Assembly: GCA_048938005.1 (NCBI GenBank)
Contig: JBHLMQ010000013.1
Span: 1 to 64,000, forward strand
Direction of reading: 5' to 3'
DNA: 64,000 nucleotides
Origin: Promethearchaeota archaeon
Lineage (GTDB): Archaea; Asgardarchaeota; Lokiarchaeia; Sigyniarchaeales; SOKP01
A program made the translations under genes and the position numbers. A model generated the notes under the pieces. It was not told where the DNA came from. It searched no databases and saw only the letters and a list, made by a program, of their open reading frames with translations. Below are positions 1 through 63,993 of this stretch, piece by piece; within the stretch, counting starts at the first letter, position 1; every line of letters starts with the position of its first letter.

Positions 1-690
<690 letters not shown>

Positions 691-770: not shown

Positions 771-1790
771 TTGAATTTAAGGTTTGCAATGCATCTAAAA
801 GATAAGATTGGAATCCATTTAGACCAAATAAAACAACTTAAAGGAGTAGAAAATGCCGTTTTAACTCAGCGAGATGGTAATCCAATACAATCAACTGGAG
901 TCTGGTTTTCGAAAGATGAAATCTTTAATGTAAGTTCAGCAACTAGTGCGATCTTTAATGTTGGAATACATTTACACCCAAAAGATTTAAAATATATCTT
1001 GATTGAAGGAAAAAAAGCAAAGATTCTAATTGCTCCCTTGAATAGCCCATTACACACCTCTTTAAATAAAATATTAGAAATGCAGGGTATATTAGATTCT
1101 AATCATGAATTTTTTATTGCAATTACTGCCCAGCCAAATATAAATTTAGGAGGAATCTTTTTACAAACTAGTGAATGTCTAAAAAAAATTAAAACAACTC
1201 TTATAACTTCTGGAGAATCGTTTAAACCACCTCTAATTCAGTTTAATAATCAGAAAATTCAAAGTATAATCGAAGGATTCAATGTAAAAGAAACAGAAGA
1301 TTTTGACTTAAGATTATCATCTTTTTCATTAAGTTTTTCAGAGACAATATCGTTAGAATTGAAAAAAGTTTTAAATAACATTTCACTGACAATTCCCGAT
1401 TTAAATTATGCTTTTATAACCATTGAGGGAGGATTTATCGCTTCTAAAGTCTTGAAGAGAATTGAGATTGATACTGAATATTTAGATAAAATTTCAGCAA
1501 TGAGTTATTCTCTTTTTCAAACAGCAAATAGATGTGCTTGGTTATTAAAGAAAATGCAAGCTGAGCGAATTCTACTCGACTGTCAAAATTCCTTTCAATT
1601 TATTGATGGGTTAGGGAAAGCAATTTTTAGTACTGAGATTGGAAAATTAAGACAGAAATTAGGTTTGATAAGATTAATACTTCCACAATTTTCAAAGAAA
1701 ATTGATTACCTTATTAAAAAAGCATCAGAAATTCAAGATCATAGAACATTTGATATTAAAAGGATGCTTGGAGAATTAATAATAAAATAA
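771..1790 (+). CDS. Tandem Roadblock/LC7 (MglB-like) domain protein; likely start ATG 789
   Basis: Two Roadblock-like units: GVENAVLTQRDGNPIQS...ILIEGKKAKILIAP and DLNYAFITIEGGFIAS...KISAMSYSLFQTANR...ILLDCQNSFQFI. Confidence 0.8.
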   Translation: MNLRFAMHLKDKIGIHLDQIKQLKGVENAVLTQRDGNPIQSTGVWFSKDEIFNVSSATSAIFNVGIHLHPKDLKYILIEGKKAKILIAPLNSPLHTSLNKILEMQGILDSNHEFFIAITAQPNINLGGIFLQTSECLKKIKTTLITSGESFKPPLIQFNNQKIQSIIEGFNVKETEDFDLRLSSFSLSFSETISLELKKVLNNISLTIPDLNYAFITIEGGFIASKVLKRIEIDTEYLDKISAMSYSLFQTANRCAWLLKKMQAERILLDCQNSFQFIDGLGKAIFSTEIGKLRQKLGLIRLILPQFSKKIDYLIKKASEIQDHRTFDIKRMLGELIIK

Positions 1791-1802: not shown

Positions 1803-2699
1803 ATGAATTTTTTTAATTTTTTAGATAAACTAAAAAGAAATTATAATTCTTTAATTCTTTATTGTCTATTAGATAGAATTCCTATTATTGTGTTAGGAGA
1901 AGACCCAGATGATATTGATAACTTTTTGATTGAACTTTCTGAACTTGTTCATTTTCGAAAAGAATATATTTTTTATACAGATTTTGTTTCAAGAAATGAA
2001 TATGAAAATCTTATTTCAAACGAAAATATTGATTATAATTATCAACGTGCACATGTTAGATGCCCTTGTAATGTCTCACGCAAAGCTTTAAGCCAATTTG
2101 AAGGCATTCATTCTTGGCTTATCGGCCTGACAATTCCTAAGAAAAAAGAGCAATTAATTTATCTTAAAAATTTAATTAAGAAAAAATCAAAAGATTTATT
2201 ATTTATTACAATTTCGTCAGATACCATTTTTTTTGATTTAGAAGGTTTTAACCTAAAATCAATAGATTTAACACTTGAACAAAATATTTTTAAGAAAATA
2301 TCTCAAGATACAGAGAAATCTATAGCAAAAATGAAAAGGGTGTTACTAGATAAATTAACTACAAATCAGCTTGATAAAGACTTAGTAAAAACACTGTTAG
2401 ATTTTGAGGAAGAAAAAAATGAGTTAAAAAAAAATATATTCAAAAAGGAAATTCAAAATTTTTATTCTGGTTCAAAAAGAACTTTCTTTATTTTATCTAG
2501 ATTGAAATTATTAAATAATATGGGAATTCAAACACGAATTGGAAGTAAAACTATCTTAGAAACAATAGATTATGAGGAAGCGCCAATAGAAAGGATCATT
2601 TCATTTATAAAGAGAGAGTGGGGAGAAGATTATTCAACTTTAATTGAAGATGGTAAAAAAGCTTTTATTGGTGATAAAATAGTCTCACTATGGGGTTAA
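1803..2699 (+). CDS. Hypothetical protein, possible DENN-core-like domain
   Basis: LYCLLDRIPIIVLGEDPDDIDNFLIELSELV...SWLIGL resembles the cDENN pattern; SD AAGGTG upstream; lies between Roadblock and GTPase genes. Confidence 0.5.
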   Translation: MNFFNFLDKLKRNYNSLILYCLLDRIPIIVLGEDPDDIDNFLIELSELVHFRKEYIFYTDFVSRNEYENLISNENIDYNYQRAHVRCPCNVSRKALSQFEGIHSWLIGLTIPKKKEQLIYLKNLIKKKSKDLLFITISSDTIFFDLEGFNLKSIDLTLEQNIFKKISQDTEKSIAKMKRVLLDKLTTNQLDKDLVKTLLDFEEEKNELKKNIFKKEIQNFYSGSKRTFFILSRLKLLNNMGIQTRIGSKTILETIDYEEAPIERIISFIKREWGEDYSTLIEDGKKAFIGDKIVSLWG

Positions 2700-3301
2700 G
2701 AAAGATCATGATTTTTAACTACGAAAATAAAATGATGCAAGTAAAGATTGTATATTATGGTCCTGCCATGTCTGGGAAAACTACATCAATACGAGTTCTT
2801 TTTTCTTATTTTAATAAAGAAAACAAAATAAAGTCCATTGATAGCTCAGTAGGACGTACTTTATTTTTTGATTTTGGAGTATTACAATTTAAAGGAACGA
2901 AATGGGGGATAAAATTTTTAATTTATTCGGCAACAGGTCAAGATTTTTATGCAAGTACTCGACCAGCGACATTAAATGGAGTAGATGGTATAATATTTGT
3001 TAGCGATTCTCAAATTGAATGTTTAGAACATAATGCACGATCTTGGAATGAATTAAAAATGTTATTCGGAACTCAGTTTTATAATATTCCCATTGTAATT
3101 TCATTAAATAAATGTGATTTATTTGAAAATTCAGGGCTAAGAGAGAAAGATATTTTGCCCTATGTAGAATATAACAAATTTAAACATATTTCTTTAAAAA
3201 GAACGATAGCTATAAAAGGAGAGGGAGTATTAGATTCATTCAGTCAATTAATTAAATTTATATTTCCACAATTGAAGGTTAATCTTTGTATTTATAACTA
3301 A
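2690..3301 (+). CDS. MglA/Arf-like small GTPase (start possibly 2708)
   Basis: G1 GPAMSGKT, G2 GRTLFFDF, G3 SATGQ, G4 NKCD, G5 TIA; KIVYYGP N-terminus is typical of MglA. Confidence 0.9.
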   Translation: MGLRKIMIFNYENKMMQVKIVYYGPAMSGKTTSIRVLFSYFNKENKIKSIDSSVGRTLFFDFGVLQFKGTKWGIKFLIYSATGQDFYASTRPATLNGVDGIIFVSDSQIECLEHNARSWNELKMLFGTQFYNIPIVISLNKCDLFENSGLREKDILPYVEYNKFKHISLKRTIAIKGEGVLDSFSQLIKFIFPQLKVNLCIYN

Positions 3302-3504
3302 GTATTGTTTTTATTCTTTGTTTCAACCTTTTGGTACATATTCTTTGATATTCTTTTTATATAACCTTGTAAGTAGAACTGTTTTAGCAAATTCCTTACT
3401 TTACGTACTTCTAACGCATCGATTCCTAAAACACTCATCATTTGGAAAATTGAAAATTGTTTCGGTAAATTTTCCTTAATGTTGTTATATAAACCCGTTT
3501 TTAT
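3298..3504 (-). CDS. Small winged-helix protein not in ORF track (68 aa from ATA 3504; 47 aa from ATG 3441)
   Basis: Translated by hand: IKTGLYNNIKENLPKQFSIFQMMSVLGIDALEVRKVRNLLKQFYLQGYIKRISKNMYQKVETKNKNNT*, an HTH plus wing pattern. Confidence 0.6.
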   Translation of the reverse strand: MKTGLYNNIKENLPKQFSIFQMMSVLGIDALEVRKVRNLLKQFYLQGYIKRISKNMYQKVETKNKNNT

Positions 3505-3585
3505 TCACAATATTATTTTTAATTTTAAACAAAAGAATGAAGAAATATTTATATATTTTATTTTAATTTGAGGAAGGTTATTCGA

Positions 3586-3699
3586 GGGAGTTTAGGTTTT
3601 TATAATCCTCAAAGTAACTATAACTTATCATTCCTACTTATAGTAGATCATCCTTGTCTAGTTTTTTTCATCGAATATTTACAATCCTAAATAACTCCT
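3586..3699 (-). ncRNA. Box C/D 2'-O-methylation guide sRNA, dual guide to LSU rRNA
   Basis: Minus strand: C-like AUGAAAA (3671-3665), guide, D' AUGA (3651-3648), hairpin UCUAC/GUAGG, C' AUGAUAA (3631-3625), guide, D UUGA (3612-3609). Both box pairs show K-turn geometry and there is a terminal stem. Guides are antisense to AGUAACUAUAACU and CCUUGUCUAGUU. Confidence 0.8.
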
Positions 3700-3794
3700 T
3701 ATAATCTTATAGGTGATTATTTATTTTAATATTAATTAAGAAAAACTGAAACGCCTTCAAAACTTTAAAAAAAAATTAAGAAAGTCTAAAAAAC

Positions 3795-4481
3795 TTAATA
3801 TTCACGAAAATCTTTAAAATTATCCCCAATTGGAGCCTCTCCATCACCGTATATTTGATATAAACCTGTTCTCCTTGCACATTCAGAAAAACTACGATAT
3901 ATATTTTTTCTTTGTTCATATAGAGCACATGTTTTATAAATTATAGGATTCCAAATATATAATTTATGATCAGGGTTATACCAGAGTTTCTCATCTTTTA
4001 AAACTTGTTTAAAATCTTCTTCTCCAATTACTTCAGTGAGATCTTGTTTATTAAGCATTATAATAAGAGGAATTTCTTTAATTAATTTATCTCTCGTGAC
4101 GTTTTTTAATTCTTTTAGAGATTCTATATTATCTTCAAAAAAGTGTGTTTGTGAGTCAACTGTAAAAATAACTCCGTCTGTACCCTTAAATATTTTTTTT
4201 CTTAATGGAGAAAACCTTCTTTGTCCCGCGACAGTGTAAACATGATAAAAAACTTTTCCTCTGCTTTGTTGCTTTGTTGATTGAAAGATACCTCTATCAA
4301 AATATAATGTTGAGCCACTAGCCATAGAGATTTTTGTTAAATTTCCTGTAGGTTCAATATCTATTTCATTTTCTTTTGTATATCGATAGAGTGTGTCTAC
4401 TATTGTTGTTTTTCCTGAACCTGCCATACCCCAATACAAGATTTTTATATATACTTTATGATCTGCTGTAAATCGAACCAT
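3795..4481 (-). CDS. Second MglA/Arf-like small GTPase
   Basis: G1 GMAGSGKT, G2 STLYFD, G3 TVAGQ, G4 NKQD, G5 TCAL. Confidence 0.9.
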   Translation of the reverse strand: MVRFTADHKVYIKILYWGMAGSGKTTIVDTLYRYTKENEIDIEPTGNLTKISMASGSTLYFDRGIFQSTKQQSRGKVFYHVYTVAGQRRFSPLRKKIFKGTDGVIFTVDSQTHFFEDNIESLKELKNVTRDKLIKEIPLIIMLNKQDLTEVIGEEDFKQVLKDEKLWYNPDHKLYIWNPIIYKTCALYEQRKNIYRSFSECARRTGLYQIYGDGEAPIGDNFKDFREY

Positions 4482-5165: not shown

Positions 5166-6200
5166 GTGTTAAAAATAAACCAAACTGAAAATTATAAGGA
5201 AAATTATGAAAAATGTCCTGAATGTGGAGGAAATATAATCATTAATAGCTTTGAAAAAATCTGTAAGGATTGTGGATTAGTGATTAATAATCTTTTTAGA
5301 GAATCAGCCTTTATATTTAATAATATTAAAAGTAAAAATAGTTTGAGCAAACAATATGTAGCAATAGGCGAACGAACAGATTTCATTGGGGGTTTAGGTT
5401 CATTTATTGATTATGAAAAATCTAAATATTTAAAAGATAAAAATGGAAAACTTTTACCACCAAGCGAGCAAAAGTTATTTAGAAGATTAAAAAAAAATTA
5501 TGCTCAATTTCTTAGAATTAAAAATCATGAAACAGAATACAGAGTTTTTAATATATTAAACAAAATTTCATTTTATCTTAACATCACTAAAAATATTCGT
5601 AACAATGCTGCATATTATTACAAAAAAATAATTAAAAATGAAAATAAAGTGATTAATAACATCTCTTTAATCGCTTTTTGTATCTTTTTTGCAGCAAGGA
5701 AAGAATATCATAACGCTCCTATAACAATTAATGAAATATCTAAAGCATTTCAAAATTTTGGGCACCGTGTAAATCCAAGATTGATTTTGAGAGATGGAAT
5801 TAGATATAAACATCATTTAAATAATGATTCTGCACCTCATAAAAGTGAAGATTATTTAATTAGACTAGTAGATGAGCTTATGAAGCATAAACATTTACAA
5901 GAGAGACTAGTAAAAAAAGGCGTATCCTGGCATAAAAAAGAATTTCAATATAAATTAATAGTAAAATGCCGGGAAATATTAGAAGATTTACCTTTAGGGA
6001 AAAGAGGTGGGAGAAATCCCTTCATTTTAACTGGAGCCATAATTTACTTGGCAGACAAATTATTAGCTAGACAATGTGATCAAAAAGCACTTTTAACACA
6101 AAAGATCATATCTGAAGCAACTAATATTGCTGAATATTCTATAAGAGATCACTATGTAAATCTATTAAAACCAATTTTTATCAATAAATTAAAATTTTAA
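5166..6200 (+). CDS. Divergent TFB/TFIIB-family protein
   Basis: Zn ribbon CPECGG...CKDCG; two cyclin-like repeats (LIAFCIFFAARKE...PITINEIS; GRNPFILTGAIIYLA...LTQKIISEATNIAEYSIRDHY). Confidence 0.85.
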   Translation: MLKINQTENYKENYEKCPECGGNIIINSFEKICKDCGLVINNLFRESAFIFNNIKSKNSLSKQYVAIGERTDFIGGLGSFIDYEKSKYLKDKNGKLLPPSEQKLFRRLKKNYAQFLRIKNHETEYRVFNILNKISFYLNITKNIRNNAAYYYKKIIKNENKVINNISLIAFCIFFAARKEYHNAPITINEISKAFQNFGHRVNPRLILRDGIRYKHHLNNDSAPHKSEDYLIRLVDELMKHKHLQERLVKKGVSWHKKEFQYKLIVKCREILEDLPLGKRGGRNPFILTGAIIYLADKLLARQCDQKALLTQKIISEATNIAEYSIRDHYVNLLKPIFINKLKF

Positions 6201-63400: not shown

Positions 63401-63993
63401 CTTTAACTCAATTATATAATACCCATGCTATCGATATCAAATCATACTTAGGAACAAAAAGATATTCCATTATTAACAATATTACTGATCTCCTTCAAAA
63501 GAAATTAATTTTCCCTTATCTATCATTAAAAAATTTAGATTTTCAAGAGAAAATTTCAATAATTTTACCCAATATTAAACAGGATTTAAATGATAAGATT
63601 ATAAGGATATTTAGTTTTTTCAATATGTGTCGAATATATGAAATCGAAGGGGAATTCTTTATTTATGGTTTTGAAGATGTGAAATCATTTGAAAACGGGC
63701 TTTTAATCGAAATTTGGCTGCCTAAATGCGAATTGGATGAATTTATTGAAGTTTTTGATTTGTTATTTCAATATTTTAATGTGAAACATCGCCTAATCTT
63801 AAGTGATATAGTTAATGGAAATACCTTACTCAAGTCAATTTACGGAAATTTAGACTTTCTAAATTCATATAACCCACTATTAAATCTAAAATGGAATGAA
63901 AAAGATAAGATCTGGATGAATCATAAGCTTTTTAATGAAAAATTCGAACCAATTTACCCAGATTTAATTCCTAACAAAATAAATCAAGTTTAA
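60358..63993 (+). CDS. Giant hypothetical protein, possibly with repeated Lrp/AsnC-like modules
   Basis: 1211 aa; recurring segments IAPSYDIDYGVIDL, IKFIPAFQKFGL, IFPYLSLKNLDF each followed by beta-alpha-beta units. Confidence 0.7.
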   Translation: MLGYIVYETLEDLSRGKGLSQIQNVFNILNSELADYLKLQPLYQEIIIKLLNKGGFKKGANVSILDFGVKRIVKNNKLMLEINENYKKFLPFILFREACYSFIPKDVSDLVKICINQIVENNLIRLSTSKDWKKLIRDSLVDRMFIHSQFDKLQKFFNIEAKEPLESSTQFFFNEMRENRLLSQNDNIDKFYDIIYERFTYKTSRSLFNSDIIETLRIMIHLFYKTKSYLNLSDYQSLFKKFKENKQIDTDLSLRKFAENMQWINKCSSIAPSYDIDYGVIDLCVIIGIIKFNPLLEKNKIKILIEEWPFYHSLKFSENSLATEVFLYFNVPRIYLNDLLNYFGRLEEYGYIIRKELYQEFKKTSPINLNYFKDIANVRRIIYPNNISYEEKYEIESNIKYSTISHPPPLSIFDFIILDRVRNLSVTGLTFDKRIETLNSIKEDVENELRKQRVFNEEFKVSLDKILNSSKLKHQFLQFIEKNKNKGFLYSYFQLSHTLNYIDLIRNILNDHPEITNSHLLQTFLNTKAISQIIEEQLLIRNKNIKKSIFRNFISLYFQSISLFKEKIGKIQAFYNVLDACNNLKILDLINIKKIVSNSNLVEEIYRKREERYEDIFKSVTLYKITNEKIESTIETFLNCNPPLLNPLLINTIITSTFAKYYPELILKDTPKAYDGLKKLKLYFPRIFIFKTTELYTKRNFICIETYFINIKEKGLFLSILCTYFKDSIIKITRYFWRGVRRRWKLDPKEFYDYENQQFFYSKDLFEQLQIYTPKILGEKLELPKYPLNDNVPEIFWSGKENMENLVATVKNRISRQDIDFNVQKLGNLLEFIRNLETNLLDRTKFIDVKVKKYFKRYVNSIKFIPAFQKFGLSPYCLYFRPFDYKYVDFRLLFINTFRVIKYPACVETNTPIFCEFIFPFRTPNKTYLNWLVKSKKNVFEYCLFYKKKFYEVIHFNRNLTKEGWSYSSIRFKSYMQDVLFNPSYNPKISKIREFDMNEKYDLNIYGPKTQEYESLTQLYNTHAIDIKSYLGTKRYSIINNITDLLQKKLIFPYLSLKNLDFQEKISIILPNIKQDLNDKIIRIFSFFNMCRIYEIEGEFFIYGFEDVKSFENGLLIEIWLPKCELDEFIEVFDLLFQYFNVKHRLILSDIVNGNTLLKSIYGNLDFLNSYNPLLNLKWNEKDKIWMNHKLFNEKFEPIYPDLIPNKINQV

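Follow-up and report, generated by a model that had tools for sequence, protein, structure and literature searches.

Does a 490-nucleotide (nt) gap in the genome of a Promethearchaeota archaeon encode a guide RNA, and if so, for which ribosomal positions? The window, by which we mean the whole 64,000-nt stretch analysed here (positions 1 to 64,000 of contig JBHLMQ010000013.1, C90 in our genome set), belongs to assembly GCA_048938005.1 (3.72 Mb, 101 contigs, 29.8% G+C). A first-pass annotation of its letters had placed an unannotated box C/D small RNA (sRNA) at 3586-3699 on the minus strand, with two guides aimed at A1913 and G1945 of 23S rRNA (E. coli numbering). Comparative sequence analysis makes it very probable that this element encodes a dual-guide box C/D sRNA of the L7Ae-Nop5-fibrillarin type, with predicted methylation of both A1913 and G1945. 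The strongest evidence is that the D' guide co-varies with its target in 23S rRNA.

A direct reading of 3586-3699 finds every element of the first-pass annotation in its reported place. The parts are as follows.

3584-3701, minus strand: whole conserved RNA element, from the covariance-model match; the stem-closed RNA runs from about 3587 to 3698
3673-3698, minus strand: terminal stem, 5' strand (GGAGUU 3698-3693, UAGG 3689-3686, UUGUAA 3684-3679, UUC 3675-3673)
3672-3670, minus strand: kink-turn (K-turn) bulge G-A-U of the C/D motif, preceding box C
3671-3665, minus strand: box C, AUGAAAA (consensus RUGAUGA)
3664-3652, minus strand: D' guide AAACUAGACAAGG, the 13-nt C-D' spacer, ending in ACUAGACAAGG
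3651-3648, minus strand: box D', AUGA (consensus CUGA)
3647-3633, minus strand: internal hairpin UCUAC-UAUAA-GUAGG, the canonical stem of the C'/D' kink-turn
3632-3630, minus strand: 3-nt bulge A-A-U, whose last two letters are the start of box C'
3631-3625, minus strand: box C', AUGAUAA
3624-3613, minus strand: D guide GUUAUAGUUACU (12 nt)
3612-3609, minus strand: box D, UUGA (consensus CUGA)
3608-3587, minus strand: terminal stem, 3' strand (GGA 3608-3606, UUAUAA 3605-3600, bulge AAA, CCUA 3596-3593, AACUCC 3592-3587)

Both box pairs have the parts of a kink-turn. In the C/D motif, a UUC/GGA stem and the GAU bulge are followed by the GA of box C (3669-3668), which faces the GA of UUGA, and then by two A-U pairs. 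In the C'/D' motif, a hairpin of 5 bp that covaries, together with a 3-nt bulge, links AUGA to AUGAUAA. Of the two guide spacers in the window copy, the C'-D one is 12 nt long and the C-D' one 13 nt. An alternative register with UCGAUGA as box C was ruled out. The G that precedes AUGAAAA is G, A or U among orthologues and so cannot be the sheared G of such a box, which fixes the register that had been annotated: UUC/GGA as canonical stem, G-A-U as bulge and the GA of AUGAAAA opposite the GA of UUGA.

The predicted targets were read in 23S rRNA from six genomes of the same genus (G042, G064, G001, G061, G063 and G077), all of which have GGGAGUAACUAUAACUCUC ... GCCUUGUCUGGUAAG in this region (6/7 fragments agree). 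The D guide GUUAUAGUUACU is antisense to the helix 69 loop AGUAACUAUAAC with 12/12 Watson-Crick pairs, and A1913 lies opposite the fifth nucleotide upstream of box D, which bears out the D target that had been named. The last 11 nt of the D' guide (3662-3652) pair with CCUUGUCUGGU through ten Watson-Crick pairs and one G.U without a mismatch, and G1945 lies opposite the fifth nucleotide upstream of box D'. Here the first-pass annotation had the right nucleotide, but the 23S sequence is not the CCUUGUCUAGU that it predicted (a form that occurs in genus g19), and the duplex is 11 bp with one G.U. In the complete 23S and 16S rRNAs of G064, the best D match is at position 2144 and the best D' match at position 2176, 32 nt downstream, in agreement with the expected spacing of about 30 nt. 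Of 20000 random genome 12-mers, 17 attain the D score, as do 13 of 20000 shuffles of the guide; the D' score is attained by 139 of 20000 genome k-mers and 68 of 20000 shuffles. Numbering was obtained by aligning the region to annotated E. coli 23S rRNA, where the annotation is one base late and was corrected by means of pseudouridines (Psi) 1915 and 1917 (PMC2794176); anchored in this way, the A1913 and G1945 assignments hold.

Because the helix 69 target is invariant, the D guide offers no covariation test. Among 20 23S stretches from f1, the family of the window genome (g and f numbers denote genera and families of the Asgard genome set), the D target GGGAGUAACUAUAACUCUC is identical in all 20, and 80 of 85 homologues carry the D guide core AUAGUUAC unchanged. 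The D' guide is different: it tracks 23S positions 1946 and 1948-1951 in families f9, f16, f21, f28 and f3 and in genus g19. The main pairs of target and guide are listed here.

Most f1 genera: target CCUUGUCUGGU; D' guide ACUAGACAAGG (or ACCAGAC, ACUGGAC)
Genus g19: target CCUUGUCUAGU; D' guide ACUAGACAAAU, with U-A where other genera have U.G
Family f9: target CCUUGUCGGAC; D' guide GUCCGACAAGU (guide GUCCGACAAG pairing with target CUUGUCGGAC)
Family f21: target CCUUGCCGGAU; D' guide AACCGGCAAGA (guide CCGGCAAG pairing with target CUUGCCGG)
Families f28 and f3: target CCUUGCCGGA(U/C); D' guide AACUGGCAAGG

In f16, the guide ACCUGACAAG predicted the target CCUUGUCAGGU before the 23S rRNA was read, and this target is present in 3/3 f16 fragments of that lineage; a fourth f16 fragment (G229) is divergent and looks foreign. 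When RNA and 23S rRNA were paired within the same genome (32 pairs), the D' guide was intact and in register in 21. Cognate combinations have a mean pairing score of 7.1, versus 3.7 for non-cognate ones. For 19 of these 21 guides, G1945 falls at +5 relative to an NUGA box, and in the other two (G228 and G229) GAAA follows the guide in the span read by the script.

The 23S rRNAs of several relatives carry insertions of about 29-57 nt in the helix 69-70 region (L061 in G061, L062 in G063, L064 and L065 in G077, L174 in G109, L182 in G104). The stretch is otherwise invariant. Three of the insertions follow AACUCUCUUAA; two others interrupt the D-guide target, being placed in the helix 69 loop after GUAACUAU and after GUAACUAUA. 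The insertions resemble mini-introns. Contigs of same-genus genomes also end in their 23S genes, at GGGAGUAAC in G008, at GCCUUG in G030 and earlier in G000, and the insertions may explain why contig ends are frequent here.

The element is widespread in its family. By BLAST it is present at 83-96% identity in 27 of 36 further same-genus genomes. A covariance model derived from a 28-sequence alignment of this genus matches the window copy with 142.6 bits (E 1.3e-33), its sole significant match in the window, and is positive in 92 of 131 other f1 genomes (g1 41/52, g20 29/42, g21 5/7, g22 6/8, g23 3/6, g19 3/5, and five single-genome genera). The same model is positive in 0 of 19 genomes of the sister families f2, f3 and f4. 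A pattern search for the start of box C', the guide core and box D, with the reversed pattern as control, covered 400 Asgard genomes; the pattern is present in 129, and the control gave 10 hits.

Family f1: pattern in 86/134 genomes
Family f2: pattern in 5/14 genomes
Family f3: pattern in 1/1 genome
Family f6: pattern in 1/3 genomes
Family f9: pattern in 1/3 genomes
Family f13: pattern in 1/31 genomes, judged chance
Family f16: pattern in 22/22 genomes
Family f21: pattern in 6/6 genomes
Family f28: pattern in 5/5 genomes

The f13 hit (G171) has no upstream C box and was set aside. Since the pattern search is positive in f2 and f3 and the covariance model is not, the model is blind to compact forms. 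Eight Asgard families have a guide to A1913, and at least six of these also carry the G1945 guide on the same RNA. In the seven families beyond f1, the homologues are compact, with an ordinary archaeal build and canonical AUGAUGA/CUGA boxes; those of f16, f3 and f9 are about 60-70 nt long and have the canonical boxes in matching alignment columns. A typical f16 copy consists of a short stem, AUGAUGA, 12 nt, AUGA, an 8-nt loop, AUGAAAU, 12 nt, CUGA and a short stem.

Two variant arrangements were seen among the homologues. In f2 (G024, G028, G053, G055 and G029; L297-L301), the A1913 D guide and a canonical CUGA are kept, and at the same loci the upstream half, with the C box and D' guide, is degenerate or cannot be recognised; these copies may be single-guide derivatives. 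At G063:C77:38575-38763 (L138), two sRNA copies stand in tandem, one full-length (74 bits) and one a partial core (48 bits), a local duplication of the guide gene.

The annotated locus had been expected to escape standard scanners, and Rfam indeed gives no match at 3586-3699, whether gathering thresholds are applied or E values up to 10 are admitted. Among seven homologues, the best Rfam score is 19.4 bits for sR2 against a threshold of 42, so no family was reached, and neither these scans nor that of the window copy returned a eukaryotic family. Two other candidates were rejected. A short BLAST match to part of the query recurs, including at window 63593-63626, but it has no boxes and no model hit and was treated as chance. 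A possible second C/D RNA near 3444 on the minus strand (weak Rfam hits to sR28, sR5 and snoZ118) owes its AUGAUGA to the start of a conserved 47-amino-acid (aa) open reading frame (ORF).

Across the 28 aligned sequences, the hairpin, most of the terminal stem, 11/12 nt of the D guide and the GA in each box do not vary, and the guide cores are the most conserved parts of the element. The GA of box C (3669-3668) is invariant in 28/28 orthologues, as are the tandem GAs of all four boxes, the AUGA of box D' and the AUGAUA of box C'. A wider alignment (A2) holds 85 f1 sequences aligned to the covariance model. In it, 89.5% of the cells in helical columns are paired, and 19 of 26 helix pairs have changed on both sides, which provides the covariation that the first-pass annotation had asked for. 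In 500 shuffled controls, none reached any of five measures, and sliding the partners by 1-3 columns left 8-12 such pairs. Helices 1-4 of the terminal stem are 70-100% paired with 13 of 19 pairs changed on both sides, and the internal hairpin (helix 6) is 96.5% paired with four of its five pairs changed on both sides (for example, UCUGC/GCAGG in G039). The UUGUAA/UUAUAA helix becomes UUCUAA/UUAGAA in other genera. An RNAalifold consensus that paired the two guides together and shifted the terminal stem was dropped in favour of the UUGUAA/UUAUAA register, which is preferred because of G.U/A-U to C-G changes on both sides at pair 23-130 in the wider alignment.

The wider comparison also accounts for the unusual boxes of the window copy. 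Box D in f1 is UUGA in 78/85 and CUGA in 5/85 sequences, and CUGA is found in the homologues of other Asgard families. Box D' is CUGA in g19 and f3 homologues. In 82 of 85 homologues, AUGA opens the 7 nt placed 12 nt before box D; the three g19 sequences have UGAUGAG there. These three g19 homologues have AUGAUGA-12 nt-CUGA followed by GUGAUGA-13 nt-CUGA in the same alignment columns. The spacers thus vary among homologues: both are 12 nt in f16, and in g19 the C-D' spacer is 12 nt and the C'-D spacer 13 nt. In helix 5, where positions 5-6 of box C face positions 2-1 of box D, the window has A-U and A-U and g19 has U.U and G-C. Judged from this alignment, the odd boxes of f1 are compensated drift: with UG changed to AA in box C and C to U in box D, kink-turn stem II has two A-U pairs in place of U.U and G-C.

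The genome encodes the proteins that such an RNA would need. Fibrillarin (PF01269, 271.7 bits) and Nop5 (PF01798, 212.8 bits) are encoded by adjacent genes at C57:27941-29403, and L7Ae (PF01248, 78.8 bits) at C8:55399-55635. Together with the canonical boxes of the homologues and the covarying helices, these genes uphold the original box C/D assignment. In the folded RNA, boxes C (AUGAAAA) and D (UUGA) would form one kink-turn closed by the long terminal stem, and box C' AUGAUAA and box D' AUGA a second one closed by the internal hairpin. L7Ae may bind both despite their non-consensus boxes, and Nop5 and fibrillarin would assemble there. If the 12 nt before box D then pair with the helix 69 loop, fibrillarin could methylate the 2'-OH of A1913; pairing of the 11 nt upstream of box D' with the helix 71 5' strand, 32 nt further downstream, would place G1945 for methylation. 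Simultaneous holding of both strands may aid the folding of this intersubunit-bridge region. Transcription, mature ends, protein binding and the methylations themselves are inferred from the sequence.

Several observations weigh against this interpretation. In the genome itself, the 23S gene breaks off with its contig at model position 1783 of 2987, before helix 69, which is why the targets had to be taken from the six relatives, and complements of the guides were found nowhere else in the assembly. A seventh same-genus fragment (L063, G040:C18:1-166) reads GUAACUCUGAC and CCUUGUCGUGU and fits either guide poorly; it may come from a second, divergent operon or, in an assembly with 8% contamination, from foreign DNA. 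The D' guide is decayed in 11 of the 32 paired genomes (3 in g1, 6 in g20, 2 in f2), which suggests that the G1945 mark is dispensable in places. The decayed guides include those of G042, G064 and most of g20; G001, G061 and G077 have intact ones. The boxes match the consensus at only 5/7 (C), 3/4 (D'), 6/7 (C') and 3/4 (D) positions, and the C-D' spacer is 13 nt, not 12. As a single sequence the element does not fold significantly (z -0.88; 33 of 200 shuffles fold as well), and covariation within the genus is weak, with six pairs against a shuffled mean of 3.2 and a score that 94 of 500 shuffles reach. The structure is settled only by the 85-sequence alignment, and that alignment was fitted to the model and therefore favours the structure. 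Finally, 20 sequencing runs contain the element, one of them an RNA library, and four were read as assembled contigs; the only RNA-library signal is a single contig of low depth (2.4), which covers 3578-3684 of a relative's copy and extends past it.

Some of these points would suit other explanations. The RNA could be derived from a box C/D guide and pair with helices 69-71 of pre-23S rRNA as a folding chaperone only, catalytic guidance having been lost on one or both sides with the drifted boxes and the 13-nt spacer. Such a role has been proposed for double guides with nearby targets (PMC4644070), and about 45% of Pyrobaculum sRNAs are reported to have both targets within 100 nt (PMC6009581); the non-consensus boxes of the window and the decaying D' guide fit it too. 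However, the +5 register to G1945 is kept where guides differ, for which an RNA acting purely as a chaperone would have no need, and the invariant tandem GAs in 28/28 orthologues, the C'-D spacing of exactly 12 nt and the compensatory box changes that keep stem II of the kink-turn paired also speak for a working guide. We consider the chaperone explanation improbable.

An L7Ae-binding kink-turn that regulates an mRNA in cis, with an incidental rRNA match, would be suggested by the setting: the sRNA lies about 95 nt past the stop codon of the Arf-like GTPase gene (3795-4481) and about 145 nt before the conserved 47-aa ORF (3298-3441), all on the same strand and with family-wide synteny, so that it could be part of the 3' untranslated region of the former or of the leader of the latter. 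Archaeal L7Ae has been reported on mRNA kink-turns (PMC5539422). Such an element would leave unexplained why the guide cores are the most conserved parts, why the D' guide follows the 23S rRNA of each lineage and why both guides are kept in the compact homologues of other Asgard families, and we regard it as very improbable. That short motifs merely came together by chance in this AT-rich intergenic DNA has a negligible probability. AUGA and UGA motifs are common at 29.8% G+C, and the lack of a significant single-sequence fold would fit it, but this explanation is already contradicted by the conservation of the element in 92 of 131 other f1 genomes, by helices that covary, by the pattern search (129/400 genomes against 10 control hits) and by the guide-target tests, in which two matches with chance levels of about 1e-3 each lie adjacent in the target.

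The dual-guide methylation RNA that we favour resembles known archaeal sRNAs in several respects. Archaeal C/D sRNAs are described as 50-70 nt long with guides of 10-12 nt that follow the +5 rule (PMC7994747), and double guides aimed at nearby rRNA sites have been described in other archaea (PMC4644070, PMC6009581). The sR families of Pyrococcus, Sulfolobus, Pyrobaculum, Methanocaldococcus and other archaea share the C-D'-C'-D order, the +5 targeting and the choice of two nearby sites in one rRNA, and the decay of a single guide within a family is occasionally reported there too (PMC7994747, PMC6009581, PMC4644070). The window sRNA differs in its length of about 110 nt with a three-part terminal stem, in a C'/D' motif that a 5-bp hairpin closes into a true kink-turn, in the place that a K-loop takes in most archaeal sRNAs, and in its boxes (AUGAAAA/UUGA and AUGAUAA/AUGA), which are unlike the archaeal consensus. 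A full-text literature search with Asgard and C/D-box terms returned no described set of Asgard guide RNAs, only passing mentions of Asgard archaea. The RNA family is therefore new and outside Rfam, although its type, the archaeal box C/D sRNA, is well known; what is unusual in the f1 branch is the size, the long terminal stem, the C'/D' kink-turn and the compensated box drift.

The same two nucleotides are modified in eukaryotes. In yeast 25S rRNA, Am2256 of helix 69 is guided by snR63, and Psi2258 and Psi2260 correspond to 1915 and 1917 (PMC2794176); Am2256 with snR63 and Gm2288 with snR75 are listed together in PMC5199042. Since Am2256 lies two residues before Psi2258, the equivalent of E. 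coli 1915, it corresponds to A1913. The yeast equivalents proposed for A1913 and G1945 are thereby confirmed, and 2288 minus 2256 gives 32. The D guide thus shares its target nucleotide with snR63 and the D' guide with snR75, and the 32-nt gap between the yeast sites equals that between the guide matches. In yeast the two guides are separate small nucleolar RNAs (snoRNAs), whereas the window sRNA has both on one RNA, and the Asgard D' guide has been lost in some lineages. Because the target dictates the guide sequence, any identity with the snR63 guide would say nothing about descent. Table 2 of PMC11542601 enters methylation at both sites for yeast, human, Ostreococcus and the plants Arabidopsis, tomato and tobacco, and at neither for Pyrococcus abyssi.

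Am1913 and Gm1945 belong to the few large-subunit ribose methylations found alike in yeast, human, plants and green algae. Archaea and eukaryotes share box C/D guides as their system of rRNA ribose methylation, and Asgard archaea are the closest known relatives of eukaryotes, so the family bears on the origin of the modification pattern of the eukaryotic ribosome. Should these archaea carry both methyl groups, two pan-eukaryotic modifications in the helix 69-71 intersubunit-bridge region could be dated to before eukaryogenesis. The earlier suggestion that they may predate eukaryotes gains strength from the spread over eight Asgard families, but it stays a suggestion, as an archaeal hotspot also allows convergence (PMC4644070). 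According to that source, helices 68, 69 and 71 are hotspots of archaeal 2'-O-methylation, with dense predictions near E. coli A1912 in hyperthermophiles; descent is for this reason not separable from convergence. Exact methylation sites are described as generally not conserved between archaeal groups (PMC6009581). It is conceivable, though unlikely as a whole, that an ancient Asgard-wide dual guide installs Am1913 and Gm1945, that the first eukaryotes inherited the marks, perhaps together with the guide lineage, which later divided into snR63-type and snR75-type snoRNAs, and that the branch of the window independently gained snoRNA-like traits (long terminal stem, true C'/D' kink-turn, relaxed boxes). 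The family also illustrates compensated box drift, which explains why consensus-based scanners miss such genes, and its alignment can serve as a model for annotating them in Asgard metagenome-assembled genomes.

The sRNA locus occupies the minus strand of the 490-nt gap, with an Arf-family GTPase gene (3795-4481) upstream and the small ORF 3298-3441 downstream. The order of GTPase and sRNA is kept across the family, and the GTPase is 83-98% identical over 80 related contigs. The 47-aa ORF (MMSVLGIDALEVRKVRNLLKQFYLQGYIKRISKNMYQK..., minus strand) has tblastn matches in 28/28 same-genus loci at 70-93% identity. The surrounding genes at 771-1790 (plus strand), 2690-3301 (plus strand), 3795-4481 (minus strand) and 5166-6200 (plus strand) form a cluster of eukaryote-like signature genes, whose products are a Roadblock/LC7-domain protein, two Arf/Ras-like small GTPases and a weak TFIIB-like protein. 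On the minus strand, window 1-442 covers the 5' part of a 16S rRNA gene, and the sRNA gene is about 3.1 kb upstream of 16S on the same strand in the window, in G064:C35 and in G077:C1. The 23S gene is unlinked to the sRNA, about 50 kb away on the latter two contigs.

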